Below are positions 14,590 to 32,500 of a stretch of 64,000 bases of DNA, piece by piece. The position numbers and the translations under genes are program-made. Below the pieces are notes generated by a model, which worked only from the letters and a program-made list of their open reading frames with translations, searched no databases and was not told where the DNA came from. Source of the DNA: an uncultured bacterium (GTDB taxonomy: Bacteria; Fidelibacterota; Marinisomatia; Marinisomatales; JABMOV01); the NCBI GenBank assembly GCA_964654545.1, contig CAZZIU010000014.1:899-64898 (forward strand), written 5' to 3'. How positions within the stretch are numbered: position 1 is the stretch's first letter; every line of letters begins with the position of its first letter.

Positions 14590-14768
14590 TCGGTTATAAT
14601 GTCATTATCGTTAATCGGATTATTGTTTCGTATTCTAATCCTGACTAATTTGAAATCCTGTTCCGTTCAAATTGTATGCACATAGGATTCACAACATTAT
14701 TCGTCGAAAAAATAAGCAATTTAACGGTCAAATATTTTAATACAAAGCAACACAAAAGGGAGATCATT

Positions 14769-17696
14769 ATGTCTAAAATGATACTCAGTTTATTGGTACT
14801 ATCTTTTTCTTTCGGCCAGGTCACAAATGTTGACTGGGAAACGCAGGTTTATCCCATATTTAGTGATGCCGGCTGTCACAGTTGTCATGGTGCTTCCGGT
14901 GGGTTTACCATTGGTGGAACAGCCACTGAAGCCTATTCTAATATTGTAAACCAAATGAGTTCATGCAATTCGTTGGATTATATTGAACCATTCGATACAA
15001 GTGCATCCCATTTATATCTAAAAATTACTGGCAATCAGGACTGTGGAGCCAGAATGCCCTATAACAACCAAACCTATTTTGATAGCCATACGGATCAACT
15101 TGAATTAATTCAAGTGTGGATTCAGGAAGGTGCCCTTCCGGCAGCAGAAACGACTGATGGTGGTGTCTTTATTAGTGAATATATCGAAGGGTCATCCAAT
15201 AACAAAGCGCTGGAAATATTTAACGCAACTGGTGCTGATTTGGATTTGAGTACTTTGGAAATAAAATTATCACGAAACGGTTTCGGTTGGGGAATGTACG
15301 ATGCGACGACGGCGGAACCAGGCTTTATATATCCATTATCCGGGACATTGCAATCGGGGGATGTGTATGTACTGGCAGCCGATGCAGCTGGAACAGAAAT
15401 ACTTGCAGCAGCGGATGTTGCTCTGGCCTATCCAAGTGTTTGCCATTTTAACGGGGATGATGCCATTGGTCTATTCGAAAATGGTGTTTTAATTGATATC
15501 ATTGGTGTAGAACTCGAAGACCCCGGTTCAGCCTGGGACGTAGCTGGTGAAGGTGCCGCAACGGGAGAACATACTTTGGTTAGAAAAGCTTCTGTGAATG
15601 TTGGCACAACCGATTGGTCGGCTTCCGCCGGTACAAATGCGGATGATTCGGAATGGATAGTTTATGCACAGGATACGTTTGAATATCTTGGTTTCCATGT
15701 CTGGTCTGGTGGGGGCGGAGAAAATCTTGCTCCAGTGGCAAACGCAGGGTCAGATCAAACCGTTGGTTACAGTGAAGAAATAACACTCGATGGATCCTCC
15801 AGTCTTGATCCTGATGGGACCATAGATAGTTACCTTTGGAATCAGGTGAGCGGTACTTCCGTGACACTGAATAATGCACCTACGAGTATTGCGACCTTTA
15901 CATCTCCAGGTAGCGATGCCACTCTGGTATTTACATTACAGGTTACGGATGATCAGGGCGCCACGGATACAGACACCGTTACTGTAAATGTTTTAAATAT
16001 TTCACCTTCAGCTGTATTCTTCAGTGAATACATTGAAGGTTCAAGCTACAATAAAGCTGTTGAAATTTTCAACGGTACAGAAGGAACAATCGACCTGGCA
16101 GATTACCAATTCTGGCAAATTTCCGGAGGTGGAGAATGGCCGGAATATACGATTGATTTGACCGGATCACTGGCAGCAGGTGAAACCTATGTTATTTGTC
16201 ATCCGGATGCTGATGCTGCCATGCTGGCGGTTGCAGATTTGGTTATTACTCTGTATCACAACGGTGATGATGCACAGGGAATTGCCCAAAATTTTGCCGG
16301 TACGTGGATACTCATTGATGCCATCGGGGAAAGCGGTGATGCCCCAACCGGAGGTTGGGATGTTGCCGGTGTATCTCAAGGTACAAAGGATCACACCTTA
16401 GTGCGTCAATCAACCGTCTTAACAGGAAATACGGATTGGTCATCTTCCGCCGGTACCAATGCTTCAGATTCTGAATGGATCGTATACGATGTGAACACAT
16501 TTGATTATTTGGGAACCCATAATCAGAATGCGGATGCGCCAGTGATAGTAAACCTTTCGGCGACGCCGGACTTTGTAACTTCTACGACGGAGTTGGAGGT
16601 GTCGGCCGATATCACGCCAGTCGTAGGTACAGTTACGTCCGCCTCCATCTGGTACGGGACGGATGGTTCTCTTTTGAACGAAGCGGTAATGTGGCTCGAA
16701 TCCGGAACCACATGGATGGGATTAATACCACCCCAATCAGGGAATTCAGTTCTTCAGTTCCAAGTTAGTGGGACTGATGACGCAGGCAACACGGGTGAAT
16801 CCACCACACTGTCCGTATTGGTAGCAAGTTCTACACCAACATCCATCGCAGATATCCAGGCTGATGTCGCTTCTTATGTGGATCAAATTGTGACATTACA
16901 GGGTATTGTAACCATCGGTGTTGGCGTATTGGATGAAGATGACACCAAGGCCTATATCCAGGATGCATCCGGACGAGGATTGAATATTTTTGATTTTGAT
17001 ATATTACCAAATATGGATCGTGGCGATGAACTCCAAATGGTTGGATACATCGATCAGTATTTCACGACGACGGAAATTGTCGATTTTGTATATCAACGAC
17101 TATCCACTGGAAATACGATTCCCGCGGTTCAAGAGGTCACGGTTACACAGGCAAATTCATCAAACTACGAAGGTACATTCATTCAAATTAACGGTGAAGT
17201 AACCAATTCAGTGGTTGTGGGTGGTGGACAAAAAATAACGATTTCCGATGGTGGAGATTCCACTTTTGTGATGATCTGGCCTTCAACCGGAATTGACGTA
17301 ACGCCACTTACTGTGGGATCTACATGGTCGCTTGCCGGTGTAGGCAGTCAGTATTCCGACGAATACCAGCTTTTGGTGGGTTATTCTGATGATATAGTGA
17401 ATCTGGGGATTGATGATGACCTCATTATCCCAACGCAGTTTGGATTGCACAACGCCTATCCCAACCCCTTTAACCCGGCCACCACTTTGACATGGACCCT
17501 GGATCATTCCGGAGAACATGAATTGGCTGTGTACAATATTCTTGGACAGCAGGTGTCAATGCTGAGCAAAGGGTATAAAAATGCCGGTTCATATACATCA
17601 GTCTGGCAGGCGGGAAGCCTCAGTTCAGGAGTGTATTTTGTTCAATTAACGGCTGAAAACAAAAAGGATATTCACAAAATCCTGCTGGTTAAATAA
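14769..17696 (+). CDS. T9SS cargo: PSCyt1-like CXXCH domain + LTD + PKD-like + LTD + NucH-type beta-barrel unit + CTD
   Basis: Start at the internal ATG 14769 (AAGGGAG 7 nt upstream; signal ..SFSFG|Q). GCHSCHG lies at 14874-14888. Two ExeM-type LTDs (VFISEYIEGSSNNKALEIFN and VFFSEYIEGSSYNKAVEIFN). PKD-like block PVANAGSDQTV..LDGSSS.DPDG. The unit IADIQ...VTLQGIVT...YIQDASGRGLNIF..GDELQMVGYIDQY. CTD AYPNPFNPATT...GVYFVQL...ILLVK. Confidence 0.8.
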   Translation: MSKMILSLLVLSFSFGQVTNVDWETQVYPIFSDAGCHSCHGASGGFTIGGTATEAYSNIVNQMSSCNSLDYIEPFDTSASHLYLKITGNQDCGARMPYNNQTYFDSHTDQLELIQVWIQEGALPAAETTDGGVFISEYIEGSSNNKALEIFNATGADLDLSTLEIKLSRNGFGWGMYDATTAEPGFIYPLSGTLQSGDVYVLAADAAGTEILAAADVALAYPSVCHFNGDDAIGLFENGVLIDIIGVELEDPGSAWDVAGEGAATGEHTLVRKASVNVGTTDWSASAGTNADDSEWIVYAQDTFEYLGFHVWSGGGGENLAPVANAGSDQTVGYSEEITLDGSSSLDPDGTIDSYLWNQVSGTSVTLNNAPTSIATFTSPGSDATLVFTLQVTDDQGATDTDTVTVNVLNISPSAVFFSEYIEGSSYNKAVEIFNGTEGTIDLADYQFWQISGGGEWPEYTIDLTGSLAAGETYVICHPDADAAMLAVADLVITLYHNGDDAQGIAQNFAGTWILIDAIGESGDAPTGGWDVAGVSQGTKDHTLVRQSTVLTGNTDWSSSAGTNASDSEWIVYDVNTFDYLGTHNQNADAPVIVNLSATPDFVTSTTELEVSADITPVVGTVTSASIWYGTDGSLLNEAVMWLESGTTWMGLIPPQSGNSVLQFQVSGTDDAGNTGESTTLSVLVASSTPTSIADIQADVASYVDQIVTLQGIVTIGVGVLDEDDTKAYIQDASGRGLNIFDFDILPNMDRGDELQMVGYIDQYFTTTEIVDFVYQRLSTGNTIPAVQEVTVTQANSSNYEGTFIQINGEVTNSVVVGGGQKITISDGGDSTFVMIWPSTGIDVTPLTVGSTWSLAGVGSQYSDEYQLLVGYSDDIVNLGIDDDLIIPTQFGLHNAYPNPFNPATTLTWTLDHSGEHELAVYNILGQQVSMLSKGYKNAGSYTSVWQAGSLSSGVYFVQLTAENKKDIHKILLVK
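15165..15698 (+). repeat. intragenic duplicated module, copy 1 (ExeM-type lamin-tail domain, ~178 aa)
   Basis: Copy 1 VFISEYIEGSSNNKALEIFN...GTTDWSASAGTNADDSEWIVYAQDTFEYLGFH aligns end to end with copy 2. Confidence 0.8.
16014..16520 (+). repeat. intragenic duplicated module, copy 2 (ExeM-type lamin-tail domain, ~169 aa)
   Basis: Copy 2 VFFSEYIEGSSYNKAVEIFN...GNTDWSSSAGTNASDSEWIVYDVNTFDYLGTH is a diverged duplicate of 15165-15698. Confidence 0.8.
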
Positions 17697-17699
17697 ACT

Positions 17700-19703
17700 A
17701 TGAAAAAAATAGCAAGGTATGTATTGATTTTCCTCCCCATTCTATTGGCCGGGGAGGTCGATCATCTCATTTTCTCCGATCTGATTCTTCAACCTAGTGA
17801 TGGTGAATATGTAACCATTACAAATCCCACAAGCGGCGCAATTGACATGAGTGATTACTATATCACAGATGGAGCCGATCCCGGAAACGGTAAATACTAT
17901 TATAATCTCCCTGCCGATTCCAATTATTGGAGCGGATCAAGTTCAGATTTTATAGCACGCTTTCCGTCGGGACTCATGCTGGACGCAGGTGAAACGATAT
18001 TTCTCTCACTGAGAGATGGGGCAAGATTCCAGAGCGAATATGGAAGTCTTCCTGATCTTTCCCTCGATGATGATTTATTAGATGCTGTTACGGGATCGCC
18101 ATCAAAAGGATCTGTTGTTGCAGCAAAGCTGAATAATGCAACTGAATCACTCGTTTTATTTTATTGGGATGGTACAATGCCTACAGTGCAGGATGTGGAT
18201 TATCTGGTATGGGGCGACAACACCTACGCCATAGATAAGTCGGGTATCAGCGGATATGTCAATGAGACACCCCTGGCATCACAGGACGTTTTGCCGGTAC
18301 ACGATGCATCAGAAAAACTAAGTAGAATTAGTGACGAAGGAATCGAGACAACATCAGGTGGAAATGGGATCACAGGGCATGATGAAACCAGTGAACCCTT
18401 TGGTTCGACCTGGACAATTGTAAGTATCACTTCATCAAAACCTGAATTGTCTAATCTGTCTATTGTTCCCGAAGTGCCCACAACTAGTGATCAACTAACA
18501 TTTACCATTGATGTTACCGATGATGACGGGATAGCCAGTGTTGAATTGGTTCGCACGTTTAATTCAATACCAACCGTTACCGAAATGAGCCTTGCTACTG
18601 CTCCACAATATTCGCTCACCATCGATTCACTGGGCGCAGTGGGGCAATTGAGTTATTACGTACGAGCAACCGATAATGTTGGCTTTAAAGATTCCACGAA
18701 TATTAATGCAATAAATATTGTGACACCTCCAGAACCGCCGGAAGATCTATCTATCAAGGATATTCTGGATAGTCTGTCTAATTATGTGGGAGAAACAGTG
18801 ACGATTGATGGGGTAATAGCTGTCCCGGGAGGATTGTTACGAACAACCTTCACTGAAGCCTTTTTGCAGGATAACTCTGAAAGAGGCCTTATTTTATATG
18901 CATCCACGTTGGATACAACCTCATTCAAGCGTGGGGATTCTGTATTGGTAACCGGCGAAGTGGATGAATATAATGGCAAACCGGAATTGATTTATTCTGA
19001 TGTAACAGTATTAAAATCAAATGCAAAAATACCAGTGATTGACTTGACAATTGAGCAATTTAATAGTTTGCAATACGATTACGCATTTGTAGAAATTTGG
19101 GGGAAAATCACCAGTAGGTCCGAACCAACCCCAACCAATACCGGAACAAACGTCTCCATCCAGGATGAGACCGGTGAAACAGCGACTGTACGTATCTGGA
19201 ATTCCACCCGTGTTCTTTACAATGAAACTGGTGATTCAATTCTCCACGTTGAGTTGGATACCTTGCTCCAGGTAGGCAAAGAAATTGTTGTCCGTGGGAT
19301 CGGAGGTCAATATTCCGGAATTGGTCAAATTCAACCGGCTTACGCGAGTGATATTTTTGAAAAACTCGAGGGGGTTGAAGGAGATTATTCCACATCTTTG
19401 ACAATTGCACCGTATCCATTTGTTCCCCAATTTGGTGAAGTAATACAATACACATACAGTTTTCCTGCCAATGCACGAATCAAGCTGCGATTATTTGATA
19501 CGGCAGGAAGGTTAATAAGTACGATATATGATGAGTATCGCACCATATCATTCTACAAAGAAGATGTTTGGAATGGGCGAGATGATCTTAATCAATTACT
19601 TCCACCCGGTGTTTATATAATGCATCTGGAAGTGACCGATACCCAAACCGGAAAATTAACCACGGACATGGCGCCGGTTGTGGTTGGAGCGTACAAGCCA
19701 TGA
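17700..19703 (+). CDS. secreted LTD + Ig-like + NucH-type beta-barrel unit protein with a FlgD-Ig-like C-terminal domain
   Basis: LTD: LIFSDLILQPSDGEYVTITNPT..IDMSDYYITDG. Barrel unit: IKDIL...GETVTIDGVIAV...FLQDNSERGLILYA..GDSVLVTGEVDEYNGKPEL. C-terminus: YPFVPQFGEVIQYTY...LRLFDTAGRL...WNGRDD..PPGVYIMHL. Confidence 0.7.
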   Translation: MKKIARYVLIFLPILLAGEVDHLIFSDLILQPSDGEYVTITNPTSGAIDMSDYYITDGADPGNGKYYYNLPADSNYWSGSSSDFIARFPSGLMLDAGETIFLSLRDGARFQSEYGSLPDLSLDDDLLDAVTGSPSKGSVVAAKLNNATESLVLFYWDGTMPTVQDVDYLVWGDNTYAIDKSGISGYVNETPLASQDVLPVHDASEKLSRISDEGIETTSGGNGITGHDETSEPFGSTWTIVSITSSKPELSNLSIVPEVPTTSDQLTFTIDVTDDDGIASVELVRTFNSIPTVTEMSLATAPQYSLTIDSLGAVGQLSYYVRATDNVGFKDSTNINAINIVTPPEPPEDLSIKDILDSLSNYVGETVTIDGVIAVPGGLLRTTFTEAFLQDNSERGLILYASTLDTTSFKRGDSVLVTGEVDEYNGKPELIYSDVTVLKSNAKIPVIDLTIEQFNSLQYDYAFVEIWGKITSRSEPTPTNTGTNVSIQDETGETATVRIWNSTRVLYNETGDSILHVELDTLLQVGKEIVVRGIGGQYSGIGQIQPAYASDIFEKLEGVEGDYSTSLTIAPYPFVPQFGEVIQYTYSFPANARIKLRLFDTAGRLISTIYDEYRTISFYKEDVWNGRDDLNQLLPPGVYIMHLEVTDTQTGKLTTDMAPVVVGAYKP

Positions 19704-20587
19704 GAAACAACATAATTCTTACACTGCTTGTATTTACTTCTATGATATATGCACAGGTGACATCGGATACCCAGTATCAAGGTGCACGTCAGTTAGCGTT
19801 AGCCGGAAGTGATATTGCCTGGGAGCAGGATGCCTTCGCCGTATTTCATAATCCGGCTGGAGCGGCCTGGCAAAACAATTTGCGGGTCGGACTAGGATAT
19901 GAACATCTCTTCGGACTTTCCTATTTGCCACATATCACCACGGCTGTATCGGTACCTGTCGGGAAATACGGGACTTCCAGTCTTTCTTTTGAGCAATTGG
20001 CTGTTTCCTATCAATCCAATGATTTATCAACAGAAAATTCCCTCGGAGTATCACAGTCATTTTTCCTCATGAAAGATCGCATGACCAGCCTGGCCGTGGG
20101 AATTTCATTCAATTATTATTCAGTAAACTATGGTAAATCGGCTGGTATCTCCGGGGATGGCTCTGATGGAATAAATTTAGGTTCTACAAGTACATACGGA
20201 TTGTCTTTGGGATTCCAGGGAAGCTTGCATGAAACGCATTGGGTAGGCGCCTGGGTAAAGAATATAAACTCACCTGGATTGGATAATGCGGATGTTGTGT
20301 CCTATCTACCCCGATCCATTGCTCTGGGATATTCCTATGCTCCCTATCATTTGGTAAGAACACATTTTTCCATGACCAAATCCGTCGGGAGAATTGGTCA
20401 GTATCATGCCGGGTTGGAGTATGAACTGACTCCTTATTTTACTGTTTTATCCGGTGTGCATAGTAACCCAAATAGATTTGGCGCTGGATTAAAACTTCAC
20501 GTGAAATCCATGAATATTTATTACGCAATATTGACCCATCCCGTATTGCCGCTGGCTCAACAATTCACTTTTGGAATGGCATTTTGA
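19700..20587 (+). CDS. PorV/PorQ-like outer-membrane beta-barrel protein
   Basis: Signal ..SMIYA|Q. GARQLALAGSDIAWEQDAFAVFHNPAGAAW signature. Ends FTFGMAF. ATGA overlap with the upstream cargo gene. Confidence 0.6.
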   Translation: MRNNIILTLLVFTSMIYAQVTSDTQYQGARQLALAGSDIAWEQDAFAVFHNPAGAAWQNNLRVGLGYEHLFGLSYLPHITTAVSVPVGKYGTSSLSFEQLAVSYQSNDLSTENSLGVSQSFFLMKDRMTSLAVGISFNYYSVNYGKSAGISGDGSDGINLGSTSTYGLSLGFQGSLHETHWVGAWVKNINSPGLDNADVVSYLPRSIALGYSYAPYHLVRTHFSMTKSVGRIGQYHAGLEYELTPYFTVLSGVHSNPNRFGAGLKLHVKSMNIYYAILTHPVLPLAQQFTFGMAF

Positions 20588-23037
20588 GGAATACCCTTCT
20601 ATTGCTTTTGTGTGGATTTTTAATTGCACAAACACCAAAAGTACCGTTGAATTCCACTACCTTGGAAGAATTGCAGGAATTACCTATTCCGGGCGATATT
20701 GCTGAAGCTGTATATGATTATGTGCTTTACCAGGGGCCGGTCACGAATATTTATTCTTTAGGTTCAATTCCTGGTGTGACGGCTGAATATCTTGAAATAT
20801 TAAAAACCCATGTGACCACATCGGAGAAAAAAGTAAAGGGCGTTAATCGGTTGATGGAATTTTCGCGAAGCGTGGAAAATTTTACAGGAACGGAAGGAGT
20901 AAACGAAGGATTGGTAGAAATGTGGTTAGATCGATTGGCAGAGCCCATGAATATCAATGATGCCACCTATGATGATTTAATTGCATTGCAAAATGTAAGT
21001 CCCGTTGATGCGGTTGCCGTACTCAAAAGGTTGGATGAAGGTGAATTGAGTTACCCGCGGGCACTTCGTACTGCATTGGGTTTATCCTATTACGGTTACC
21101 GCAATATGCGTGACTTTTTCGTCTATGGAAGTGATACAACCGCTAAATCCAATCATTTTTGGTACAATACCACATACAAAACAATCCCATCGACCAATTC
21201 ATTTGACAGTGAAGTATCGTCTGGCGATCCCCTTTCCTATCACCCCGCTGATGTACAACATAAAGTATTATTTTCTTATGGTGAGCACTGGAAATTTGGG
21301 ATGATTTATTATCGCGGAATGGGTGAAAGTACACTGTCAGAATCGGATCAAAACGGCCTTTTCCCTTCGATAAAAATATCAGCATCATTAAATGATGTTG
21401 ATGCTGGTGTGGTCAATTTTGATCGAATAATATTAGGTAGTTTCAGTGTCACAATGGGGCAGGGGGTCGTATTTGAAAGTACGGACTTTTTTGCTCCCCG
21501 GCGGTCAGGTTATGGTTGGAGCCGTCGTGTTGTTGGTGCATTTCCTGATGCTTCTAGATCACATGAGTATGCTTTAAACGGGGTTGCCACGCAAACAAGA
21601 ATTGGTCCGTTTCAGGCAATTGGATTCATATCTAAAACACCAAGAGATGCGATTATTAATCCGATTGATAAATCCATATCTACCTTGATATCTCTCTACC
21701 CTCGTATAGATGTTGGCTATTTTGGTGACCTGCCATTTCCAATGTTAAATACCGTGGAAGAAATGACCTATGGAACGCATATTCGCTATTTTCACCAGAG
21801 GGATTTGATTTTGGGATTTTCAGCGTATGAAAGTTTATATGATCGTGTGCTGGATCCCCAAATTCGAAAAACTATTATTCATCCGGACAATCAATGGAGA
21901 TACCTAACCTCTATTGGAAATACGGCTGATACTGAGATTGATGCAATGTATTTATCAGAAGGGTCATCTCCCCTGTGGGATAAAGCAAAATCCTTTCGGA
22001 GAGTGGTGGGTATGGACTTTACCAAAGTAATATCGAATATTGCATTCCAGGGTGAAATTGGTTTATTAGATAAAGATGGTGATATGACCACTTTTTCCAA
22101 GGATCCGCAAGCAAAAGTACTTAGCGGATATATGCAATTTGATAATTTAAATATTTTGGTATTGTACCGTGATTATGACCTTGGATTCGATAATCCTTAC
22201 CAACGTTCCTTTTCTAATTATCAGCGCTACAAAGGATCCATTTTTGAAGATACGTTTTATTTAACCGACCCTATTTATGGATTTTTATATACGGGCATAG
22301 CCCAACCACAGGCGGAAAGAGGTATATATTTTTCAAGCCGATACCAATTTCATCAGCAATTTGTAGTGACCACAGATTTTGATACCTGGACGCGAGTTGC
22401 AGATAACGCACGGTATTACCGGACGGTCATTAGACTTCAGTATAGACCAACCTTTAATTATAGAATTAATATTCGACAAAAATGGCAGGAAAGAGGAGCC
22501 TTTGACAGTTTCGATCCGTCCGCATTTTATTCCCGGGAAACAATTCTCCGATTTCAGATGCGATTATCCAATTATGACCAGCTGGAATTAATTTACGGTC
22601 GTTCCGCCGTCGATTTTACTGCCCGCAGAAGATTATCTGCTGATTACGAAAGTGGCGGTCAGAATCTGGCCTTAGTAGGCAATAAAAATTCGCTTGGGCA
22701 ATCTGTAGGATTTCGCGTAATACATCATTTCCAAAACAATTCAAGAATCTCTTTCCATACGCTGTTTTATCAAGGATTCGTCTGGAGTTTTGAAGAGACA
22801 GATTTTCGCGTATTCGATAGCCTATCCGATGCGGTCCGTTATTATGTTGCCTACAGTTCCCGCTTAGGACAAAACTGGATGCTGCGACTTAAATGGACCA
22901 ATGATATTCAATTGCCAATTACAAACTATTATTATGCCGATAGTGAAAGTGCTTCGATGTATGACCGTAGCCTACAAGACATTTATCCAATCACCCAAAA
23001 CTCTGATGTTCGGGTACAAATTGATTACACTTTTTAG
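20584..23037 (+). CDS. ComEA-like tandem helix-hairpin-helix N-terminal region fused to a large (~600 aa) predicted outer-membrane beta-barrel
   Basis: TTG start overlapping the upstream stop (TTGA). Signal ..GFLIA|Q. HhH-like modules: LNSTTLEELQELPIPGDIAEAVYDYVLYQGPV..LGSIPGVTAEYLEIL and MNINDATYDDLIALQNVSPVDAVAVLKRL. The remainder is rich in aromatics and alternating residues and ends VRVQIDYTF. Confidence 0.6.
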   Translation: MRNTLLLLLCGFLIAQTPKVPLNSTTLEELQELPIPGDIAEAVYDYVLYQGPVTNIYSLGSIPGVTAEYLEILKTHVTTSEKKVKGVNRLMEFSRSVENFTGTEGVNEGLVEMWLDRLAEPMNINDATYDDLIALQNVSPVDAVAVLKRLDEGELSYPRALRTALGLSYYGYRNMRDFFVYGSDTTAKSNHFWYNTTYKTIPSTNSFDSEVSSGDPLSYHPADVQHKVLFSYGEHWKFGMIYYRGMGESTLSESDQNGLFPSIKISASLNDVDAGVVNFDRIILGSFSVTMGQGVVFESTDFFAPRRSGYGWSRRVVGAFPDASRSHEYALNGVATQTRIGPFQAIGFISKTPRDAIINPIDKSISTLISLYPRIDVGYFGDLPFPMLNTVEEMTYGTHIRYFHQRDLILGFSAYESLYDRVLDPQIRKTIIHPDNQWRYLTSIGNTADTEIDAMYLSEGSSPLWDKAKSFRRVVGMDFTKVISNIAFQGEIGLLDKDGDMTTFSKDPQAKVLSGYMQFDNLNILVLYRDYDLGFDNPYQRSFSNYQRYKGSIFEDTFYLTDPIYGFLYTGIAQPQAERGIYFSSRYQFHQQFVVTTDFDTWTRVADNARYYRTVIRLQYRPTFNYRINIRQKWQERGAFDSFDPSAFYSRETILRFQMRLSNYDQLELIYGRSAVDFTARRRLSADYESGGQNLALVGNKNSLGQSVGFRVIHHFQNNSRISFHTLFYQGFVWSFEETDFRVFDSLSDAVRYYVAYSSRLGQNWMLRLKWTNDIQLPITNYYYADSESASMYDRSLQDIYPITQNSDVRVQIDYTF

Positions 23038-23044
23038 GATTAAC

Positions 23045-24388
23045 ATGAAATACACTTATATTTCAAATCTTTTATTACTAATTACGGGTGCATCCACCAT
23101 ATTTGCACAATCCTATTTCCCATTATACCCAAACGAATTAAGTGGTTATAGTGCTCAATTAATAGGCAGTGCCGGGACAGGTATTGCATCCAATCCAGGG
23201 GTTTCGTGTATCTGGGGAAATCCGGCCATGCTTGGCTCCATAAACGGCAGATTCAATTCAAGTTTTACTTTCGGAGTCCAAAGAAGTGAAGAGTTTCGAT
23301 CAGTAAATATGATCGACTCGTTTGATGATGTAGTTACAAAAAGTGCCTATGCCAGTAATCGCAATTTCTATACCCTAACTCATGGAGGAATGGTAACCTC
23401 ATTACCGTCAGTGTTCGATAAAATTAATGTTGGGATTGGAGTGATGCCCTATTGGGATTACCGCTACAATTATTCTGAAGAAGTTCGAGGAAATTTAAGT
23501 TCCGGTAATTACAACCGTGACCCTCTCGTAGGTTATCATACCATTGAGCGTTCCGGTAAAATCTACGCCACTGGAATTGGTACAGCGCTAAATATTGTAC
23601 CTGCATTGGATTTAGGTTTATCCGTTTCCTGGTTGCAATCATTCAACCTTATGAGTAGACAGGGTATTATATCATCTGATTCGAATATAGATGATGCATT
23701 AGCAGGTGAACCCTATTCTGTCGGCGGTGATATAACATTAAGCAAATCGGCTCTGTTGGTGAATGCAGGTGTTCTACTGCGATTATCGGAAATGGATCAC
23801 ATTGGTTTTATGTATCGTTCGGGAGTATCCCTTACACTGAATGGATTACCATGGTATCCATCCCTGGCACCGGAATCTCAGCTGCCAACCACGTACGTAA
23901 ATATGGATACAACCTTTGCCCATACGATCACAATGCCGCCAGAGATTGGAATCGGTGTTCAACACAAAGTAGGGCACAGTATTTATCCCACAACTATAAA
24001 TGTGGAAGTGCGTTATAGGGATTGGACGCTTTATGAATATGCTTTTAATCCCATGATTGATTCATTAAGCACCCTGGATTACCCATTTGAATCAACGTTT
24101 GATGTGCGTTCAAGCGTGGAATACCTTGTGAGAAATAGATATCCTGTGCGATTCGGATTTATTTACAAAGGTTCTCCTATGGGCTCAGATTTTGAAACCA
24201 CGACCATCACACTTGGAACGTCACACGTATTTGGTCCGATGACGCTGGACGTGGGTGGATGGTTTAATTACATGAGTTATATCTATGATGACATTTTTAT
24301 TGCAAGTGGTTATACGGGAGAACCTGCTAAAGAGACGGTCCAGGAATGGAACAGTCAATTGGTAATGACTTTAACTTATTCATTTTAA
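23045..24388 (+). CDS. FadL/TodX-like outer-membrane channel protein
   Basis: Internal ATG 23045 gives the signal MKYTYISNLLLLITGASTIFA|Q. SGYSAQLIGSAGTGIASNPGVSCIWGNPAML resembles the FadL N-terminal signature (SS.G.G.A....NPA). At 447 aa it is FadL-sized. Ends MTLTYSF. Confidence 0.6.
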   Translation: MKYTYISNLLLLITGASTIFAQSYFPLYPNELSGYSAQLIGSAGTGIASNPGVSCIWGNPAMLGSINGRFNSSFTFGVQRSEEFRSVNMIDSFDDVVTKSAYASNRNFYTLTHGGMVTSLPSVFDKINVGIGVMPYWDYRYNYSEEVRGNLSSGNYNRDPLVGYHTIERSGKIYATGIGTALNIVPALDLGLSVSWLQSFNLMSRQGIISSDSNIDDALAGEPYSVGGDITLSKSALLVNAGVLLRLSEMDHIGFMYRSGVSLTLNGLPWYPSLAPESQLPTTYVNMDTTFAHTITMPPEIGIGVQHKVGHSIYPTTINVEVRYRDWTLYEYAFNPMIDSLSTLDYPFESTFDVRSSVEYLVRNRYPVRFGFIYKGSPMGSDFETTTITLGTSHVFGPMTLDVGGWFNYMSYIYDDIFIASGYTGEPAKETVQEWNSQLVMTLTYSF

Positions 24389-26304
24389 TGAGAAGAATTC
24401 TTTCAGTCATTTTATCCTTTTCTGCGATTCTGATTGCAGGTGAAGGTGATATTTTGGAAGTAAATCTAATTTTCACCAACGAAATCCAGGGTTCCATTCA
24501 TCAGGTTCCGGCCCGGTTCATGAACCCGGAATATCCACCACTGTTAACCGGCGGCGCTGGTGCCTATACCTATGTGAACTCGGTTCGTGACGGCATTGAT
24601 AGTCCAGTTCTCCTGCTGGACGGCGGAGATTTTTTTCAAGGAACACCGTTAGGGACTCATGATGCAGGAAAATCGATCATCACATGGATGAATTGGATGC
24701 AATATGATGCATTGGTTCCCGGCGTGTTTGATTTTATTCTGGGTAGAGATGCACTGGCACACACTGCTTCCACTGCACACTTCCCATTTCTTGCCGCCAA
24801 TATCATTGAAAAGGAAACGGGAAAAAACCCGGACTTTGTAAAACCATATATCCTTAAAGAAATAGACGGTGTAACGTTTGGCATCATTGGTTTGGCTTCG
24901 CCAATGGTGAAAGATCAAATTGTTGCTGAGAAGTATGAAGGATTGATCTTTCAATCCCCACTGGAAGTTCTTGATAGATGGGTAAGCGAGGTGAAAACAC
25001 AGGGTGCAGATATTGTCATCCTACTGTCCAGCCTGGGATTACCCTATGAAAGGGAATCCGTATTTGATGAGTTTACCGATCAGATAGACACACAATCTTC
25101 TGAAATGCAAAATGAAACATTGGACGCAATCGTTTTGGCGCATTATGCAAAAGGTGTGGATATCATTGTGACCGGTGGAGTTTCCAAAGGATATGACACA
25201 CCTTGGATTGATCCTGAAACACATGTGCTGGTAGTGCAGAATTACGGCAACATTACTGGAATTGGTCATTTGATTTTACAGATCGACAGAAATGTAAAAA
25301 CTCTAACAGGATATCAATACCCGACCAAAAGAGGAATGATGATTAGCTTGCTGGAGGATGATGTTGCCGCCGACCCGGTGATAGCAGATTCAATCTCAAA
25401 CTGGGTTGAGAATTCAACACCTCCTCTCCACTTCTTAGATGATACTATAAAGGATGCTGTATTTATAGAACAGAACACAACATTATTCACAATGGATAAT
25501 TTTAACATTCCAGCAATAGGCACAGCCGATAGAATGGATATTATGACTTGGAATCTGGAATGGTTCCCGGCTGCGGGGGATACGACGATTGAGTATGTCA
25601 GTGAAGTCCTGCACGATCTAAATCTAGATATTGTTGCTCTTCAGGAAATAAAAAATATGGGGTGGTTTGGAAAATTGATGGAGCAAATTCCTGAATACGG
25701 GTACATTTTAACAAAACAATCCTCCTTTTTGAATCAAGCCATTATCTATCGAAAAGAAAATCTGGCTGTCCTCGATTATTATGAGCCATTTGCAATGGAT
25801 GATTATTTCTTTGCAGGACGACCACCCCTGCTGGTGAATTTTGCATATAATGACGGCTATACTGTAAAAGTCTTTACCGTAGTAAATCTCCACCTGAAGT
25901 GTTGCGGTGATGGTTTATATCGCAGGCAACGTTCTTTAGAGTGGCTGCACGATTATCTCTTGGAATATATGGCTGTAGGGCAGGATAGAATTGTGGTTTT
26001 AGGGGATTTGAATGACCAATTGGACGATGAGCCGGTATTTAATTCATTTTATCCGTTTCTTGATGATCCTGCAAATTTTTATTTTGTAACAGAATCCATT
26101 CATGATGATGCTTCACAGGCATCCTATCCCAGCTGGCCCAGTTTTCTTGATCACATTATAATTGGCAAAGGATTTTTCAATGATCACCAGCAAAGTGGAT
26201 CAATCCAGACGGTTCAGGTAGACGACTATGTAGGTAGTTGGGAATTATATGAGTCTACCATGTCCGACCATCTACCTGTTTTGTGGTCCTTTAAATTCAA
26301 ATAA
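24388..26304 (+). CDS. fusion protein: degenerate 5'-nucleotidase/metallophosphatase-like N-half + EEP nuclease/phosphatase C-half
   Basis: Internal ATG 24388 (TAATG overlap). The N-half aligns to UshA-type motifs, but the catalytic residues are replaced (TNEIQGS for TNDxHG, PGVFDF for GNHEFD, GGVSKG for GGHSH). GGDFFQGT is retained. The C-half EEP is intact: MTWNLEWF, ALQEIKN, VLGDLND, SDHLPVLWSF. Confidence 0.75.
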   Translation: MRRILSVILSFSAILIAGEGDILEVNLIFTNEIQGSIHQVPARFMNPEYPPLLTGGAGAYTYVNSVRDGIDSPVLLLDGGDFFQGTPLGTHDAGKSIITWMNWMQYDALVPGVFDFILGRDALAHTASTAHFPFLAANIIEKETGKNPDFVKPYILKEIDGVTFGIIGLASPMVKDQIVAEKYEGLIFQSPLEVLDRWVSEVKTQGADIVILLSSLGLPYERESVFDEFTDQIDTQSSEMQNETLDAIVLAHYAKGVDIIVTGGVSKGYDTPWIDPETHVLVVQNYGNITGIGHLILQIDRNVKTLTGYQYPTKRGMMISLLEDDVAADPVIADSISNWVENSTPPLHFLDDTIKDAVFIEQNTTLFTMDNFNIPAIGTADRMDIMTWNLEWFPAAGDTTIEYVSEVLHDLNLDIVALQEIKNMGWFGKLMEQIPEYGYILTKQSSFLNQAIIYRKENLAVLDYYEPFAMDDYFFAGRPPLLVNFAYNDGYTVKVFTVVNLHLKCCGDGLYRRQRSLEWLHDYLLEYMAVGQDRIVVLGDLNDQLDDEPVFNSFYPFLDDPANFYFVTESIHDDASQASYPSWPSFLDHIIIGKGFFNDHQQSGSIQTVQVDDYVGSWELYESTMSDHLPVLWSFKFK

Positions 26305-26308
26305 CATC

Positions 26309-27241
26309 ATGCTAAGAATACTTAGCTGGATATTGGCAATAGGTCTTATTCTGCTGATAGCCAGTTGTGCCAAACCCACTGAACCTCAGGACTTGCCAGA
26401 TGATAATGGAACGTCATCGCTTCCATATCCTTCATTACATATTGGAACGGATTCTACCTTTGAAATTGGTACCTGGAATTTGCTGAATTATCCCCACGCA
26501 TCCACATCAAACGTATATATCACTGATATATTAAAGTCGCTGGATGTGGATATGGTTTGTTTCCAGGAAATTAGTAATTCTTTGCAATTTGCCAACATGG
26601 TAAACCTGCTTAATGATATTGATTCGGTAAATACATGGGTTGGGCATGTGGGAAATTCTACCAATTATGACGGACAGGATTTGGCTGTGATTTATAAGGC
26701 CGATATAATTTCACAAATAGAATTCACGGATATTTTTACGAATGAAAGTGGGGCATTTCCTCGTTCTCCATTGAAAATTAAATTTACACTGAACGATGAG
26801 ACATTTATTGTCATTGATAATCATTTAAAAGCCTATGATTCTCAAGAGGATAGAGATAGAAGAAAGAATGCTTGCTCATTGCTGGATACATATATTGATT
26901 CGACCTATCCAAATGACAATGTGATTATCCTTGGTGACATGAACGATGAGGTTACGGATGGCTCTAGTGAGAATGTATTTTTAGCATTTATTGATTCGCC
27001 AGGTGACTATAAAATCGCTGATATGATCATAGCAAGGGGATCTTCACAAAATTGGTCCTACCCAACCTGGCCAAGCCATATTGATCATATTATTATTACC
27101 AATGAATTGTATGATGAGTTTAGCGGAAGCGGTGCAGCAATCAACACAATCCGGATTGATGATGCATTGGACGGTGGTTGGTATGAATATGAAACCAACA
27201 TTTCGGATCACAGACCGGTGGTTTGGTCATTTCCCTTGTAA
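26309..27241 (+). CDS. EEP-family nuclease/phosphatase lipoprotein
   Basis: Internal ATG 26309 gives the lipoprotein signal MLRILSWILAIGLILLIAS|C. EEP blocks: IGTWNLLNY, VCFQEISN, IILGDMNDE, SDHRPVVWSF. Confidence 0.8.
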   Translation: MLRILSWILAIGLILLIASCAKPTEPQDLPDDNGTSSLPYPSLHIGTDSTFEIGTWNLLNYPHASTSNVYITDILKSLDVDMVCFQEISNSLQFANMVNLLNDIDSVNTWVGHVGNSTNYDGQDLAVIYKADIISQIEFTDIFTNESGAFPRSPLKIKFTLNDETFIVIDNHLKAYDSQEDRDRRKNACSLLDTYIDSTYPNDNVIILGDMNDEVTDGSSENVFLAFIDSPGDYKIADMIIARGSSQNWSYPTWPSHIDHIIITNELYDEFSGSGAAINTIRIDDALDGGWYEYETNISDHRPVVWSFPL

Positions 27242-27464: not shown

Positions 27465-29579
27465 GTGATTTACAACAAATATAATATTCGTGCTATCTGT
27501 ACAATTCTAATTTGTATTTCATCCGTTCAGGCACAGTTTGCACCAGATGTATATGATCAATATACAAGTGTAAATCAATTGGGTCTGACCATAACAAATT
27601 ATGGTGTCCTAGGCAATGATTTAAGACGGATTAATGGTGAGATTTTACCATCATGTAAGTATAAGCAACACTCTGATGTTCTTCGAGAACAGGTTGAGCA
27701 TTTTTCATTTGCAGGAGTTTATATAGGTGGTATTGTAAACGGAGAGCGACGTGTAAGCACATCCATTATAGATGGTCAATTCGAATCCGGTACAGAAGGG
27801 TTTGAGTTTTTTCCTACTTCTGGAATCGATATACGTTCAACCATTTCCACTACTTCAGAGGATCCCATATCACAATATTTTGATACATCAGCAGTATCCC
27901 ATCAGGATATGATTATAAATTTTCGAGATTATGGACAGGTTATCCCCAATCATGAGCCATTAGGCATCGATGTTCACTTGGAATCCTATTCCTGGAATTT
28001 CAATTTTGCAGATGCATTTGATATTTTAAGCTATACAATTACTAATTCATCGCAGGATACGATTAGGGATATATATGCAGGAATATGGGTTGATGCGATT
28101 ATTGTCAATCCAAACTATACAGATATATACAACGGCGTAAGCAGACCGTTTTATTATCATCTTGACGGGTTTGATGAATCATCTGATGAATCTGGGTTTA
28201 ATCGTGATATTGCATATGTATATGATGCTGACGGGGATGATGGATGGTCGGAAACATACCTTGGAATAAAAAGGCTTGGCGGGAATGTTCCTGCAAAATA
28301 TCTCAATTCTCATTATGGCCAGTGGCTATGGAGTGGTTCATCATCAGAATACCCATCCTACATACAGGCACAAAACGATATAGAGCGCTATGAAATTATG
28401 ACATCCAGTGTACCAAAGGGATCAGTGGAAGCGCTCTACACTAGTGAAGGATATCCAAATCAACCTAATAGCTGGTTATTCCAGTTATCATCAGGACCAT
28501 TTGGAAGTTTACCTTTATCTCCCGATTCTACAAGTTGGGCATTACCACCAGGAGAGTCCTGTAATGTTGTATTTGCAGTCGTTGCCGCTCGCTGGAATGG
28601 TGGCGGAGATGACAGTCCCGAAAGAAGAGAAAATCTTTATATCAATTCTGATTGGGCACAACAAGCCTATGATGGGGAAGATAAAAACCGGAATAATATA
28701 TTGGATCCAAATGAAGATGTTAATGGAAATAATATACTGGACAGGTACATATTACCGGAACCTCCACCGAATCCTAATGTCCACGTTCAGGTTGGAGATA
28801 AATCCACAACAATCTATTGGTCTAATGAGGCTGAAAAATTTATCGATCCCATAAGTCAGAAAATTGACTTTGAAGGATATCGAATCTATGGCGCTCGAAA
28901 AACGGCTGGAGATGAATCAATAGAATTTACACTTTTAGGTGATTTTGATGTGTTTATTGACAGTATTCTAAATATTGGATATAACACAGGACTTGATGCT
29001 ATAGAAATTAGAGATGAGAATCAAAATCCCGATTCGGTTTTCATTGATGGACAGGTTTATCATTATAAATTTGAAAACACAGGAATCAATAATGGATGGT
29101 TAAGTTACTACTCGGTAACTGCCTATGATCGCGGTGATCCTGAAGCAAATCTGAAAAGTCTGGAAAGTTCAGTTTACTCAAACAGAGTATATGTCTATCC
29201 TGGTACTACGCCAGCGCACCCGGACTCGGTATGGAATCCAACTGTATACCCAAATCCTTATCGCGGCCAGGCAAAGTGGGATGGTTATGGGAATCGACAA
29301 CGAATGATCTGGTTTCGTCATCTCCCGAAACAAGCCGAAATTAGAATTTTCACACTCGCCGGTGATTTGGTGGACGTGATTCAGCATTCTGAAACATACC
29401 GGGGCGAAGATGTAGCAATCATTGATAGTAGAAAAAACCCCTTAATGAGCGGTGGCGAACATGCGTGGGACCTGATAACCAGATACGATCAGGCCATCGC
29501 TTCAGGGTTATACCTCTTCACGGTGGAAAACACCGAAACGCATGAAATAAAGGAAGGAAAATTCCTGATCATTAAATAA
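27465..29579 (+). CDS. hypothetical secreted protein with a Ca-binding-like DxDxNG repeat and a FlgD-Ig-like C-terminal domain
   Basis: GTG start. Signal ..ISSVQA|Q. DGEDKNRNNILDPNEDVNGNNILD lies at 28671-28742. C-terminus: VYPNPYRGQAKWDG...IRIFTLAGDLV...GLYLFTVEN...FLIIK. I recognise no catalytic motif. Confidence 0.5.
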   Translation: MIYNKYNIRAICTILICISSVQAQFAPDVYDQYTSVNQLGLTITNYGVLGNDLRRINGEILPSCKYKQHSDVLREQVEHFSFAGVYIGGIVNGERRVSTSIIDGQFESGTEGFEFFPTSGIDIRSTISTTSEDPISQYFDTSAVSHQDMIINFRDYGQVIPNHEPLGIDVHLESYSWNFNFADAFDILSYTITNSSQDTIRDIYAGIWVDAIIVNPNYTDIYNGVSRPFYYHLDGFDESSDESGFNRDIAYVYDADGDDGWSETYLGIKRLGGNVPAKYLNSHYGQWLWSGSSSEYPSYIQAQNDIERYEIMTSSVPKGSVEALYTSEGYPNQPNSWLFQLSSGPFGSLPLSPDSTSWALPPGESCNVVFAVVAARWNGGGDDSPERRENLYINSDWAQQAYDGEDKNRNNILDPNEDVNGNNILDRYILPEPPPNPNVHVQVGDKSTTIYWSNEAEKFIDPISQKIDFEGYRIYGARKTAGDESIEFTLLGDFDVFIDSILNIGYNTGLDAIEIRDENQNPDSVFIDGQVYHYKFENTGINNGWLSYYSVTAYDRGDPEANLKSLESSVYSNRVYVYPGTTPAHPDSVWNPTVYPNPYRGQAKWDGYGNRQRMIWFRHLPKQAEIRIFTLAGDLVDVIQHSETYRGEDVAIIDSRKNPLMSGGEHAWDLITRYDQAIASGLYLFTVENTETHEIKEGKFLIIK

Positions 29580-29596
29580 AGAAACAGGAGCATAGA

Positions 29597-32500
29597 ATGA
29601 AAATAAAAACGTTATTAATTCTTTTGGTTCTGGTCTCCGTATCCTTTGGACAGGTGCTTACAATTGGAGAAGCGCGGGCAATGGATGTGGGCGATACAGT
29701 TACCGTAGAAGGAATTGTCACGACTCCTAGCTGGTCAACCGGTTATACGAGTTATCAGATTCAAGATGAAACAGGCGGATTGAATCTGTTCTATTACAGT
29801 CAGTATGTGGCACTTTCCATGGGGGATTTGGTTCAGGTCACCGGATACATTGAGTTGTACAACGGCTTATTGGAAATTATTGCCCTTGACGCTGCATCAA
29901 TCTCTATCGTCAGTTCGGGGAATGCATTACCAGAATCGCAACCATTGACACTATCCGCCCTCCTGAGCGATCCCGAATCATTCGAGTCTGAACTGGTGAC
30001 AATATATAATGCATCTGTTACGGGTGGTACCTGGCCGGCAGAAGGAAGCAGTGCCACGCTTCAAATTTCAGACGATGGTGGAAGCAATCAAGTTGATTTA
30101 CGAATTGATAGTGATACGGATGTTGATGGAAGTACAGAACCGACATGGCCCATGGTGATTACAGGAGTTTTGAGCCAATACGATGGATCTGCTCCTTATG
30201 ATGAAGGTTACCAGATTATGCCCAGAGCGTTAACCGATATTGGTGATCCACCGGCTGGTGTGTCCACCATGGCTGAAGCACGCGCAGATTCTGGTGGAAC
30301 CCATACGGTAAGAGGCTTTGTGAACACTCCACCCTTTGCGTTCTCCAGAACCGATGTGGGATTTCAAGATGCTACAGGTGGATTAAATCTCTTTGTCTAT
30401 AGTCAATATATGTCTACCCTTGAAGTTGGTGATTATATTGAAGCAACCGGTACCGTTATGGATTATAATGGGAAACGTGAACTAAGCTGTGCTGATACCA
30501 CTGCAATCACCATCCTGTATAAAGGATCAACAGTACCACCTGCAATGACTATGACAATCTCAGAAATATTAGCGGATCCGGAGACAATAGAAGGCATGTT
30601 GGTAAAAGTATTAAATGCCACCTATTCTGGAACCTGGCCAACGGGTAGCGGTAGTTTCGATTTGATTGATCCAACCGATACAATGGCCGTATATATTGAC
30701 AGCGATCAACCAATTGCCGGAATGACTCCACCCACCGGTGCGTTCAATTTGACCGGATGGTTGGGTCAATATTATTCTCATCAGATCATGCCGCGCTATG
30801 AAACGGATGTGGAAACATTTGAAAATCAGGCACCTGTTATTGTAAATGTTAGTTATTCACCGTCACCGGTTTACGATGGGGATGATGTGACAATTACAGC
30901 TGAAATAACAGACGACGGAAATTTTACTGCCACATTAGTATATGATGCTGGAGCTGGCGCAGTTGAAGTTGGTATGACGTATGTATCCGGGGATATGTAC
31001 GAAGCTGTTGTGCCCGGTCAATCCGCTGGAACAACGGTGACCTATCACGTGTCTGTAGATGATGGTGATTTGGTTACTGTATCTGATGATTTATCTTATT
31101 TGGTATTATCCTCTGCAGGTGGAACAGTACCAATTTATGATATTCAATATTCGGAAACCGGACCATCTCCTTTGGATGGAAATGAAGTGACCATTTCGGG
31201 TATTGTGACGGCAGAATTCTGGGGTAGTTCAAGCAATCGGTATCTTTATGTTCAAGATTCAACAGCGGCCTGGTGTGGGATCTACGTGTTTGAATATAGT
31301 GGATGGGACAATTTTGATTTTAATTCATCCACAGGAATTGTCCATTCAGTGGCCGAGGGTGACAGTATTTCTCTTACTGGAACGGTCACAGAATACTACG
31401 GTGTTACGGAAATAACCGATGTTACTCAGGTTACGATTTACGGTGAAGGAACTGTTCCGGATCCCATTGTGGTTACACCTGGTCAGGTTAAAACCGATGG
31501 TACAGAACAGGAAGCCTACGAAGGTGTATTGGTAAAAGTTGAGAACGTGGTTATTGCTGAAGAAGCTAATAACTATGGTGAATGGTTAGTTACCGATGGC
31601 ACAGACACATTAAAAGTAGATGATACCTGGGATTACTACTATTGGGGAAGTATGGGTGATACGTTGGCAGAAATTGTCGGTGTAATGGACTATTCATATA
31701 GCGAAGCCAAACTCCAACCGCGTCTGGCCCGCGATGTTGTGGAATCGGGTAATCGTTCACGCATTCAGCGGATTCAACACGTCCTTTACAGTGATCTATT
31801 GAAAACTGGACGGTTGGGTTCTGATGGTACGATTGATCATTCATCTGACATGTCGTATATGAATATTAATCCAGGCGTGGACACTACCTTTGTACAAATC
31901 AAAGGTATTGTAACCATGCCATCCGAGCTGGGTTACGCAGGAGCTGGTGTGAAAGTGATATACCAGGATATTCATGGTGGACCATGGAGTGGTATTCTTT
32001 CCTATGATCCGGATTCAAGTGCTTTTCCAGTCCTTTGGGAGGGCGACACCGTAGAGGTAACCGGTTATATTTCTGAATATGTTACCGACCACGCAAACAT
32101 GACAGAACTATTTGCAACCGATGTACCCAATGTTGTTGGATTTGGTAGTGGAGAACACAGAACCGGTATCCCAGATCCGGAAGTAGTGGAAGCAGGAGAT
32201 TTACGTTGGCCTGAAACCGCTGAACAGTGGGGCAATGTGTTTGTCCAGTTAAACGACCTTACCGTCACCGATGTAAGAACGAGTAATACTAACGAAGGAA
32301 TGTTCTCAGTATCAGATGGTACTGGTGAAGTGTGGATAGATCATGATTCTTGGGTCTGGTTCGACTGGTGGGAGTTGTATGGTTCTCCAGCCGTTGGCAC
32401 TCAAATAGATTCCATCTATGGATGGGTTTATCACCATTTCCATACCTACAGTGATTCAGGTGTATCCACTTACAAAATCGTTCCACTTTACGAAGAGGAC

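Follow-up and report, generated by a model that had tools for sequence, protein, structure and literature searches.

The B subunits of the eukaryotic DNA polymerases alpha, delta and epsilon are inactivated scaffolds with a metallophosphoesterase fold, and Bacillus subtilis YhcR is a fusion of a nuclease with a 5'-nucleotidase. VPS29 is a scaffolding protein with a metallophosphoesterase fold (PMC5748213). UshA and CpdB carry their catalytic site in the N-domain, and their specificity is set by a substrate-binding site in the C-domain (PMC8071527). To these systems we compare a gene in a DNA stretch of 64,000 nucleotides (the whole of it being "the window" in the following; positions 899 to 64,898 of contig CAZZIU010000014.1) from an uncultured bacterium of the Marinisomatales, Fidelibacterota. 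Its product of 638 amino acids (aa) joins a 5'-nucleotidase N-domain with replaced catalytic residues to an intact EEP domain. On balance we favor the view that it is a secreted, probably periplasmic nuclease with a pseudoenzyme N-half, that it was born in a conserved operon, and that the N-half is kept for a structural or docking role. The gene and the protein are laid out as follows:

24388..26304, forward strand: fusion gene, predicted dead 5'-nucleotidase N-domain and DNase I-like EEP domain, secreted, 638 aa (open reading frame, TAATG overlap, homologues)
24388..24447, forward strand: Sec-type signal peptide, aa 1-20 (read from the sequence; predicted helix aa 2-16)
24451..25422, forward strand: predicted catalytically dead 5'-nucleotidase N-terminal (calcineurin-like metallophosphoesterase) domain, aa 22-345 (sequence and fold matches)
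25423..25533, forward strand: poorly conserved inter-domain linker, aa 346-382 (18% mean identity; predicted local distance difference test, pLDDT, 62-76)
25534..26301, forward strand: intact DNase I-like EEP domain, a predicted nuclease, aa 383-638 (Pfam PF03372, invariant residues, DNase I profile match)
25900..25905, forward strand: adjacent cysteines C505-C506, three residues past the catalytic His502 of the EEP domain (invariant in 52 out of 52 family members)

The open reading frame (ORF) 24346..26304 on the forward strand is the one intact ORF of the region. The ATG at 24388 is the likely start, because it overlaps the upstream stop (TAATG), opens a Sec signal peptide (MRRILSVILSFSAILIAGEG) and agrees with the lengths of the orthologues (633-656 aa). 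The protein is 100% identical to P0001. Neither a lipobox cysteine nor a C-terminal sorting domain of the type IX secretion system (T9SS) was found in the 638 residues by reading the sequence and by Pfam (no Por_Secre_tail match), and since the Sec signal is present the protein probably stays in the periplasm. The AlphaFold2 (AF2) model of the fusion, calculated from 52 family sequences, has a pLDDT of 90.4 and a predicted template modelling score (pTM) of 0.88. The latter suggests a confidently predicted, fixed two-domain arrangement despite the variable linker.

The original prediction, drawn up by eye, read the N-half as an UshA/5'-nucleotidase-type domain with replaced catalytic residues, and family models, structure comparison and three alignments bear this out. 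The NCBIfam models SoxB, UshA-like and CpdB match aa ~24-345 with E-values from 7e-23 to 1e-8, at scores far under the family cut-offs (80.7 out of 550, 63.9 out of 600 for UshA, and 55.1 out of 486 bits). Pfam Metallophos gave no match in the window protein. A phmmer search of the PDB with the N-half retrieved 3ivd (E 2.5e-17) and CD73 (~3e-11), then UshA, CpdB and SoxB. CD73, 3ivd and UshA were also the best PDB matches of the AF2 model in Foldseek (E ~1e-23), where N-domain-only alignments cover ~350 residues at 4-6 Å. By sequence and predicted fold, the N-half is a genuine UshA/CD73-type 5'-nucleotidase N-domain.

The register of the motifs was set by HMMER alignment to 3ivd and CD73, by MAFFT alignment with UshA, and by BLASTP alignment to the intact relative P0124, which is nearly gap-free at 39% identity (E 1e-71). 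The three alignments agree that eight out of the nine catalytic positions are replaced (residues of UshA are given first):

24481..24489, forward strand: motif I, metal ligands D41 to E32 and H43 to Q34 (P0124 SNDVHG, window TNEIQG)
24628..24630, forward strand: motif II, D84 retained as D81, the only ligand kept (P0124 DAGDFFQG, window DGGDFFQG)
24724..24738, forward strand: motif III, N116 to V113, catalytic H117 to F114, D120 to I117 (P0124 PGNHDYDSG, window PGVFDFILG)
25030..25032, forward strand: motif IV, metal ligand H217 to S215 (P0124 VLGHAGLPY, window LLSSLGLPY)
25177..25185, forward strand: motif V, H252 to G264 and Q/H254 to S266 (P0124 GGHMHRGF, window TGGVSKGY)

The register of motif V differs by one residue between the aligners, and a histidine is found in neither. 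From the seven ligands of the dinuclear metal site (D41, H43, D84, N116, H217, H252, Q/H254) only D84 is left, and the catalytic His117-Asp120 dyad is gone (F114 and I117). A formal profile alignment had been proposed as a check. The alignments recover no ligands in any register, and a shifted register that restores them is ruled out by the agreement of the alignments to 3ivd/CD73, UshA and P0124. The substitutions listed previously for motifs I, III and V stand, but the loss of H217 in motif IV had been missed. Similarly, motif II was correctly described as kept in the window protein, where D81 is present, but this is an oddity of that protein: the position is Asn in 96% of the fusion orthologues, including the closest relatives at 66-68% identity. 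D81 may represent a reversion to Asp or a unique retention.

Glu, Gln and Asp at three former ligand positions are metal-capable side chains. The N-domain might therefore be suspected to act still as a phosphoesterase via a non-canonical site, in which E32, Q34 and D81, for instance, would hold one Mg or Ca ion. This is extremely unlikely, as Asn116 is lost together with the dyad (V, F and I are found instead), the entire second metal site (N116, H217, H252) is gone, and the trio is not conserved, with the closest relatives reading E-N-N. The substrate-binding domain is absent as well. The alignment to P0124 stops at aa ~337-345, just past a helix (aa 330-343) with which the N-domain ends; here 5_nucleotid_C begins in the canonical relatives. 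5_nucleotid_C (PF02872) was found neither in the window protein, by Pfam and the P0124 alignment, nor in the whole window by tblastn with P0124, and the same tblastn search ruled out an intact 5'-nucleotidase elsewhere in the window. With eight catalytic positions replaced and the fold kept, the N-half is predicted to be unable to bind two metals or to hydrolyse, and is a pseudoenzyme domain as proposed originally.

With the UshA/CD73/SoxB family, especially with an unnamed subfamily that has the motifs FxNPxFPP and PWxDPxxH..QNYG (P0123-P0151), the window protein shares the homology of its N-half, the fold, the Sec signal and the operon slot described below. It differs in its replaced catalytic positions and in the EEP domain that takes the place of the C-domain, and it fails as an UshA/CD73 family member by its ligands, catalytic dyad, C-domain and curated scores. 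Like Vps29 and the polymerase B subunits, it has a calcineurin-like fold without metal ligands that is kept as a non-catalytic module. Those proteins are free-standing eukaryotic subunits from other branches of the superfamily, whereas the window domain is of the 5'-nucleotidase type and fused to a predicted nuclease, where it would play its presumed scaffold role. YhcR, and in Vibrio cholerae Xds/Dns together with UshA/CpdB/PhoX, likewise pair a nuclease with a 5'-nucleotidase for extracellular DNA (PMC4714964, PMC8289736). In these systems the nucleotidase is complete and active and the nuclease is of another fold (YhcR) or separate, whereas the nucleotidase half in the window is truncated and predicted to be dead.

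The C-half had been described as an EEP domain with its motifs retained, and this is confirmed. Pfam PF03372 (Exo_endo_phos) matches aa 386-628 with 46.6 bits compared to a cut-off of 24.5. It matches 52 out of 52 family members, in which N389, E391, E420, H502, D540, N542, D588, D627 and H628 are invariant. A search with a family profile of the EEP domain matches the whole of DNase I (E 4e-8) with the catalytic residues aligned, and R478 aligns to the arginine of the SREP segment of DNase I. Sphingomyelinases and exonuclease III-type enzymes have lower scores and partial matches only. As a single sequence the EEP half had no matches in the PDB, and the family profile was required to reach DNase I. 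The closest curated models are the nuclease models xth, MnuA and ExeM/NucH. The scores stay under the curated cut-offs for MnuA (20.5 out of 185 bits) and ExeM/NucH (NF033681; 17.4 out of 300 bits), and Pfam found neither a lamin-tail domain (LTD) nor an OB domain in the fusion protein, which is thus neither an ExeM/NucH/Xds nor a MnuA equivalog. We call the C-half DNase I-like because of the full-length profile match with aligned catalytic residues and SREP arginine. The fusion is predicted to be a metal-dependent nuclease of the DNase I type. It shares the full EEP catalytic set with DNase I, MnuA and ExeM/NucH/Xds, with DNase I aligned end to end, and differs from them by its dead nucleotidase partner and by the invariant cysteine pair beside the catalytic histidine. 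C505 and C506 are the sole cysteines of the window protein, and the paralogous EEP protein encoded downstream has none at that site. The pair might form a vicinal disulfide, or act as a redox switch or metal ligand.

At least 186 homologues with the same two-domain architecture and 40-68% identity were found in metagenome-assembled genomes (MAGs) of Marinimicrobia/Neomarinimicrobiota/Fidelibacterota. The orthologues, which the original prediction had suggested to inspect, are degenerate too, and none has the full ligand set. The typical pattern of the fusions is D/N at position 41, H at 43, N at 84, V/I/L at 116, R/K/Y/F/Q at 117, D/I at 120, H/S at 217, G at 252 and S at 254, the window protein and its two closest relatives being the most degenerate. 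Across the fusion clades the position of His117 is taken by R, K, Y, F, Q, M, E or D.

In pairwise comparisons within the family the N-domain averages 47% identity, nearly as much as the EEP domain (54%), while the linker averages 18%, and approximately 20 residues of the N-domain are invariant in 52 sequences. The dead domain is thus a maintained pseudoenzyme domain and not debris, and judged by sequence comparison it is under purifying selection. One could still regard it as a passive relic without function, which persists for folding or export of the nuclease or for lack of time to be lost. The decayed catalytic residues, root-to-tip distances exceeding those of the active relatives, and the lack of any new Pfam-detectable feature would fit such a relic. 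It is nevertheless distinctly unlikely, considering that the family has diverged to ~40% identity with the N-domain so much better conserved than the linker, that fusion-specific conserved residues exist, and that loss of the N-domain is seen in no sampled lineage (the two ORFs with an N-domain alone, in loci L011 and L016, run into the end of their contigs). If the domain were purely a folding chaperone, this would partly coincide with the explanation we prefer, in its version with a structural partner.

The fusion-specific conserved residues N81, D92, W100, G217, R222 and Y269 flank the old motifs II, IV and V. In 5'-nucleotidases the face formed by these motifs meets the C-terminal domain. 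The net charge of the N-domain has a mean of -19 in the fusions compared to -21 in the active relatives, and is -24 in the window domain; the fusions have therefore not become more positive, as might be expected for DNA binding. These results bear on the role given to the domain in the original prediction, namely that of a nucleotide- or phosphate-end-binding module which positions DNA ends or captures products for the nuclease. The kept fold, the remaining cleft-lining motifs GGxFFQGTPLGT and PWxDP..H..QNYG, and the clustering of the fusion-specific residues near the old site are in agreement with such a module. Many clades have Arg or Lys for His117 while H43 and H217 persist, and metal-free phosphate binding could be possible there. 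However, the nucleotide-binding site of UshA and CpdB lies in the C-domain, which is absent here (PMC8071527). The residues of the old site vary by clade, with Phe at the His117 position of the window protein and E/Q/D/S elsewhere, the conserved motifs are no novelty but stem from the active sister subfamily, and the strongly acidic domain is no more basic than that of the active relatives. A guiding role by binding is thus unlikely, though phosphate might still be bound in those clades that have Arg or Lys in place of His117.

The neighbours of the fusion gene in the window are as follows:

17700..19703, forward strand: 667-aa secreted protein with LTD and OB-fold (nucleic-acid binding), first gene of the module (Pfam LTD, OB)
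19700..20587, forward strand: 295-aa predicted outer-membrane protein with signal peptide and C-terminal ...FGMAF (sequence, conserved position)
20584..23037, forward strand: 817-aa protein with signal peptide, two N-terminal ComEA-like HHH modules, a predicted large beta-barrel and C-terminal ...DYTF (HHH_3, comEA, AF2)
23045..24388, forward strand: FadL/TodX-like outer-membrane barrel of about 447-449 aa with signal peptide and aromatic C-terminus (Pfam Toluene_X, E 1.5e-9)
26309..27241, forward strand: EEP nuclease-like lipoprotein with lipobox LIASC, paralogous to the EEP domain of the fusion (31% identity)

An exhaustive HMMER search with the N-domain alone returned 8,750 relatives, and only three full-length EEP-type representatives were among the top 150. 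Next after the fusion family came complete 5'-nucleotidases of 530-590 aa (Metallophos and 5_nucleotid_C) with all motifs intact. They carry the same unusual FxNPxFPP loop and PWxDPxxH..QNYG segment as the dead domain, which indicates that these extra motifs are inherited and not new. The gene of P0124 lies directly downstream of genes for an 892-aa HHH protein (E 1e-98, full length) and a 493-aa protein (E 1e-15), which are homologues of the two genes upstream of the fusion gene in the window.

Species-representative genomes were scanned with an alignment of the HHH protein, which gave 358 relatives; 80 loci were kept, 70 of them with enough downstream DNA. In 69 out of 70 loci the slot directly downstream of these two genes, for the HHH barrel and the FadL-like protein, holds a gene with a 5'-nucleotidase N-domain. 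These are 51 fusions of N-domain and EEP, 16 canonical 5'-nucleotidases and two genes cut by the contig end (L011 and L016). For the alignment 17 distinct canonical sequences were used, comprising the slot genes and an out-of-context relative in L005. The nine catalytic positions read DHDNHDHHH in 17 out of 17 canonical sequences, while four or more of these residues are missing in 51 out of 51 fusions, and His117 is found in none of the 51. In a neighbor-joining (NJ) tree the fusion N-domains are monophyletic (78 out of 100 bootstraps) and nested among paraphyletic canonical enzymes, with a root-to-tip distance of 2.40 for the fusions compared to 1.88 for the canonical enzymes.

The module is found in the same order with a canonical 5'-nucleotidase in an organism of 71.5% guanine-cytosine (GC) content, where every gene is homologous to its window counterpart, and also in L006. 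Because of this the canonical 5'-nucleotidase is the ancestral occupant of the slot. As an observation in its own right, the order of five genes is shared between the window with 41.5% GC (17700-24388) and the organism with 71.5% GC (L089:1-9764; see also L006:493-6371). The EEP domain of the fusion is paralogous to the downstream EEP lipoprotein (31% identity, E 1e-39), whose orthologue follows a canonical 5'-nucleotidase in L044 and L059. A history of duplication, replacement and decay is the simplest one for this reason. A decayed nucleotidase remnant in the N-terminal 230 aa of the L044 lipoprotein was ruled out (E > 1); by eye, this part resembles repeated Ig/FN3-type modules. According to the sequence comparison the fusion arose once, in situ, from the operon's own 5'-nucleotidase.

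The alternation of canonical 5'-nucleotidase and fusion in one slot could also mean analogous replacement, that is, the EEP domain could be a nucleotide phosphatase or exonuclease which took over the nucleotide-to-nucleoside step with the output of the slot unchanged. The EEP superfamily does include phosphatases. We consider this very unlikely, since the best solved relative is DNase I, aligned over its full length with catalytic residues and SREP arginine, the nearest curated models (xth, MnuA, ExeM/NucH) are nucleases, and the adjacent nuclease-like lipoprotein, a paralogue of the domain, is found side by side with canonical 5'-nucleotidases.

We return to the secreted nuclease with a retained pseudoenzyme half. 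The operon would have run in the order LTD/OB DNA-binding protein, 295-aa outer-membrane protein, ComEA-like HHH barrel, FadL-like barrel and 5'-nucleotidase. The neighboring EEP nuclease gene would have been duplicated, the copy would have replaced the substrate-binding C-domain of the operon's 5'-nucleotidase, and the metal ligands, then useless, would have decayed. The dead domain may have been retained for a non-catalytic job which it already held or took over, either as a rigid structural partner of the nuclease or as an adaptor at the periplasmic face of an outer-membrane DNA-import complex. The periplasmic DNase would act on DNA fragments imported by the outer-membrane module, import being the putative function of the barrel proteins. 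A structural or docking role of the dead domain is what we infer as most likely.

Hints towards docking arise from several sides. What stays the same in the slot is the N-domain, be it active or dead. The overlaps between the genes imply translational coupling, and the pTM of the model suggests a fixed arrangement of both domains. The six fusion-specific residues adjoin the face which meets the C-terminal domain in 5'-nucleotidases. In one lineage, furthermore, a TonB C-terminal domain is inserted into the dead domain.

Several points weigh against this explanation. The bootstrap value of 78% backs a single origin moderately. D41, H43 and H217 are kept in most family members, and Arg or Lys is found at the His117 position in 92 out of 120, so binding of an anion or of one metal could persist in some clades. 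The domain interface and the placement of the conserved residues were judged by proximity along the sequence alone, and the HHH-barrel model is of medium confidence (pLDDT 62.5). We infer the nuclease activity, the location and any protein-protein contact, and the co-occurrence in the operon may reflect a shared pathway and not physical docking.

Some variants of the locus are reported here separately. In P0023 (L087:3899-6214 and L088:231-2546) the TonB C-terminal domain (PF03544) lies inside the dead domain between motifs IV and V. The match is above the cut-off (E 4e-8) and the gene is in the same operon slot; one lineage is concerned, in two independent samples. TonB_C is a periplasmic module which docks on outer-membrane barrels. 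L027 has a single ORF of 943 aa (5276-8104) with the dead N-domain followed by two EEP domains, which appears to be a merger of the fusion gene and the EEP gene behind it, unless the join is an artefact of the assembly or of a frameshift; gene fusion therefore seems to be easy at this locus. The block of HHH barrel, FadL-like protein, fusion and EEP gene occurs twice in one MAG (CAJXJG01), on different contigs (L014 and L022), and this could be a real duplication or a strain-mixed bin. A gene for a sodium:solute symporter (SSF) and a 100-aa ORF are located between the FadL-like gene and the fusion gene in L004 (7898-9994).

Turning to the neighboring genes themselves, four of them, between 19700 and 26304, overlap or follow directly on each other, from which we conclude that they are translationally coupled. 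The FadL-like gene is directly upstream of the fusion gene and overlaps its start, a position that is kept in related loci. A homologue of the 667-aa LTD/OB protein is at the same position in L003, L004 and L089. The position of the 295-aa protein is kept in L001-L004 and in L089, with 27% identity to the L089 copy (E 7e-21). An aromatic C-terminal residue is typical of outer-membrane barrels. The matches of the 817-aa protein to Pfam HHH_3 and NCBIfam comEA are both weak. Its AF2 model is helical at aa 20-180, followed by more than 20 long strands, and Foldseek finds only large outer-membrane barrels (ushers, LptD, SlpA, TonB-dependent transporters) at a template modelling (TM) score of ~0.27. 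The protein is predicted to be a large outer-membrane beta-barrel, and we claim nothing narrower. The EEP lipoprotein follows the slot gene in most fusion loci, as it does in the canonical loci L044 and L059.

In a wider cluster from 12.8 to 37.5 kb, sorting domains are carried by an LTD and EEP protein (T9SS type) and by LTD/PKD and OB/DUF5689 proteins. The cluster also encodes a TonB-dependent receptor and an LTD/OB protein, and SprA and PorV-like parts of the T9SS are encoded nearby. The ExeM/Xds-like LTD and EEP protein is encoded at 12862-14589. In the known scheme for the use of extracellular DNA, extracellular or surface nucleases work together with periplasmic nucleotidases (PMC4714964, PMC8289736). 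The context of the window fits DNA scavenging, because the LTD, OB and EEP proteins with T9SS sorting, SprA and the TonB-dependent receptor match this scheme. Apart from this, the window is rich in T9SS parts and cargo at 491-6781, 12862-17696, 27465-32824 and 34673-38466. The set includes a 2096-aa SprA-like protein, a PorV/FadL-like protein and a TonB-dependent receptor, and at least four window proteins with C-termini of the Por_Secre_tail type bear LTD, PKD, OB/DUF5689 or EEP domains. Together they suggest a large cluster for surface DNA capture and degradation. A 704-aa protein at 27465-29579 has no Pfam domain; its last ~130 residues weakly match the C-terminal part of PorZ (E 1e-6), and a gene of similar size is at this position in two out of four orthologue loci examined (L001 and L003).

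In the literature searches neither this fusion nor any other 5'-nucleotidase N-domain without activity was found described, and the same holds for the HHH-barrel operon and for a characterised member of the HHH-barrel family. What the analysis adds is the fixed operon slot of the gene, the correlation between domain swap and ligand loss, and an uncharacterised outer-membrane module, while the families of the N-half and of the EEP domain are known as such. Tentatively, and with considerable doubt, one may think of the LTD/OB protein, the 295-aa outer-membrane protein, the HHH barrel, the FadL-like barrel and the protein with the 5'-nucleotidase N-domain as an undescribed DNA-import machine that would digest the fragments at its periplasmic exit. 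The N-domain, active or dead, would tether the terminal enzyme to the channel, and in Marinimicrobia the enzyme would have been switched from a nucleotidase to a DNase with its docking domain retained.

The locus represents a natural experiment in the formation of a pseudoenzyme: where the C-domain is kept, the nine residues are kept, and where it is swapped for a nuclease, catalytic residues are lost. Even so, the dead domain has been conserved over a long time. The source annotations name these proteins "EEP family protein", with P0019 alone annotated as a bifunctional nucleotidase/EEP protein. Taken at its word, such a bifunctional name would lead models of phosphorus or DNA cycling to assume, wrongly, a periplasmic 5'-nucleotidase in SAR406/Marinimicrobia. 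The ComEA-like HHH-barrel module is widespread and is a candidate for the uptake and degradation of extracellular DNA by abundant uncultured marine bacteria.

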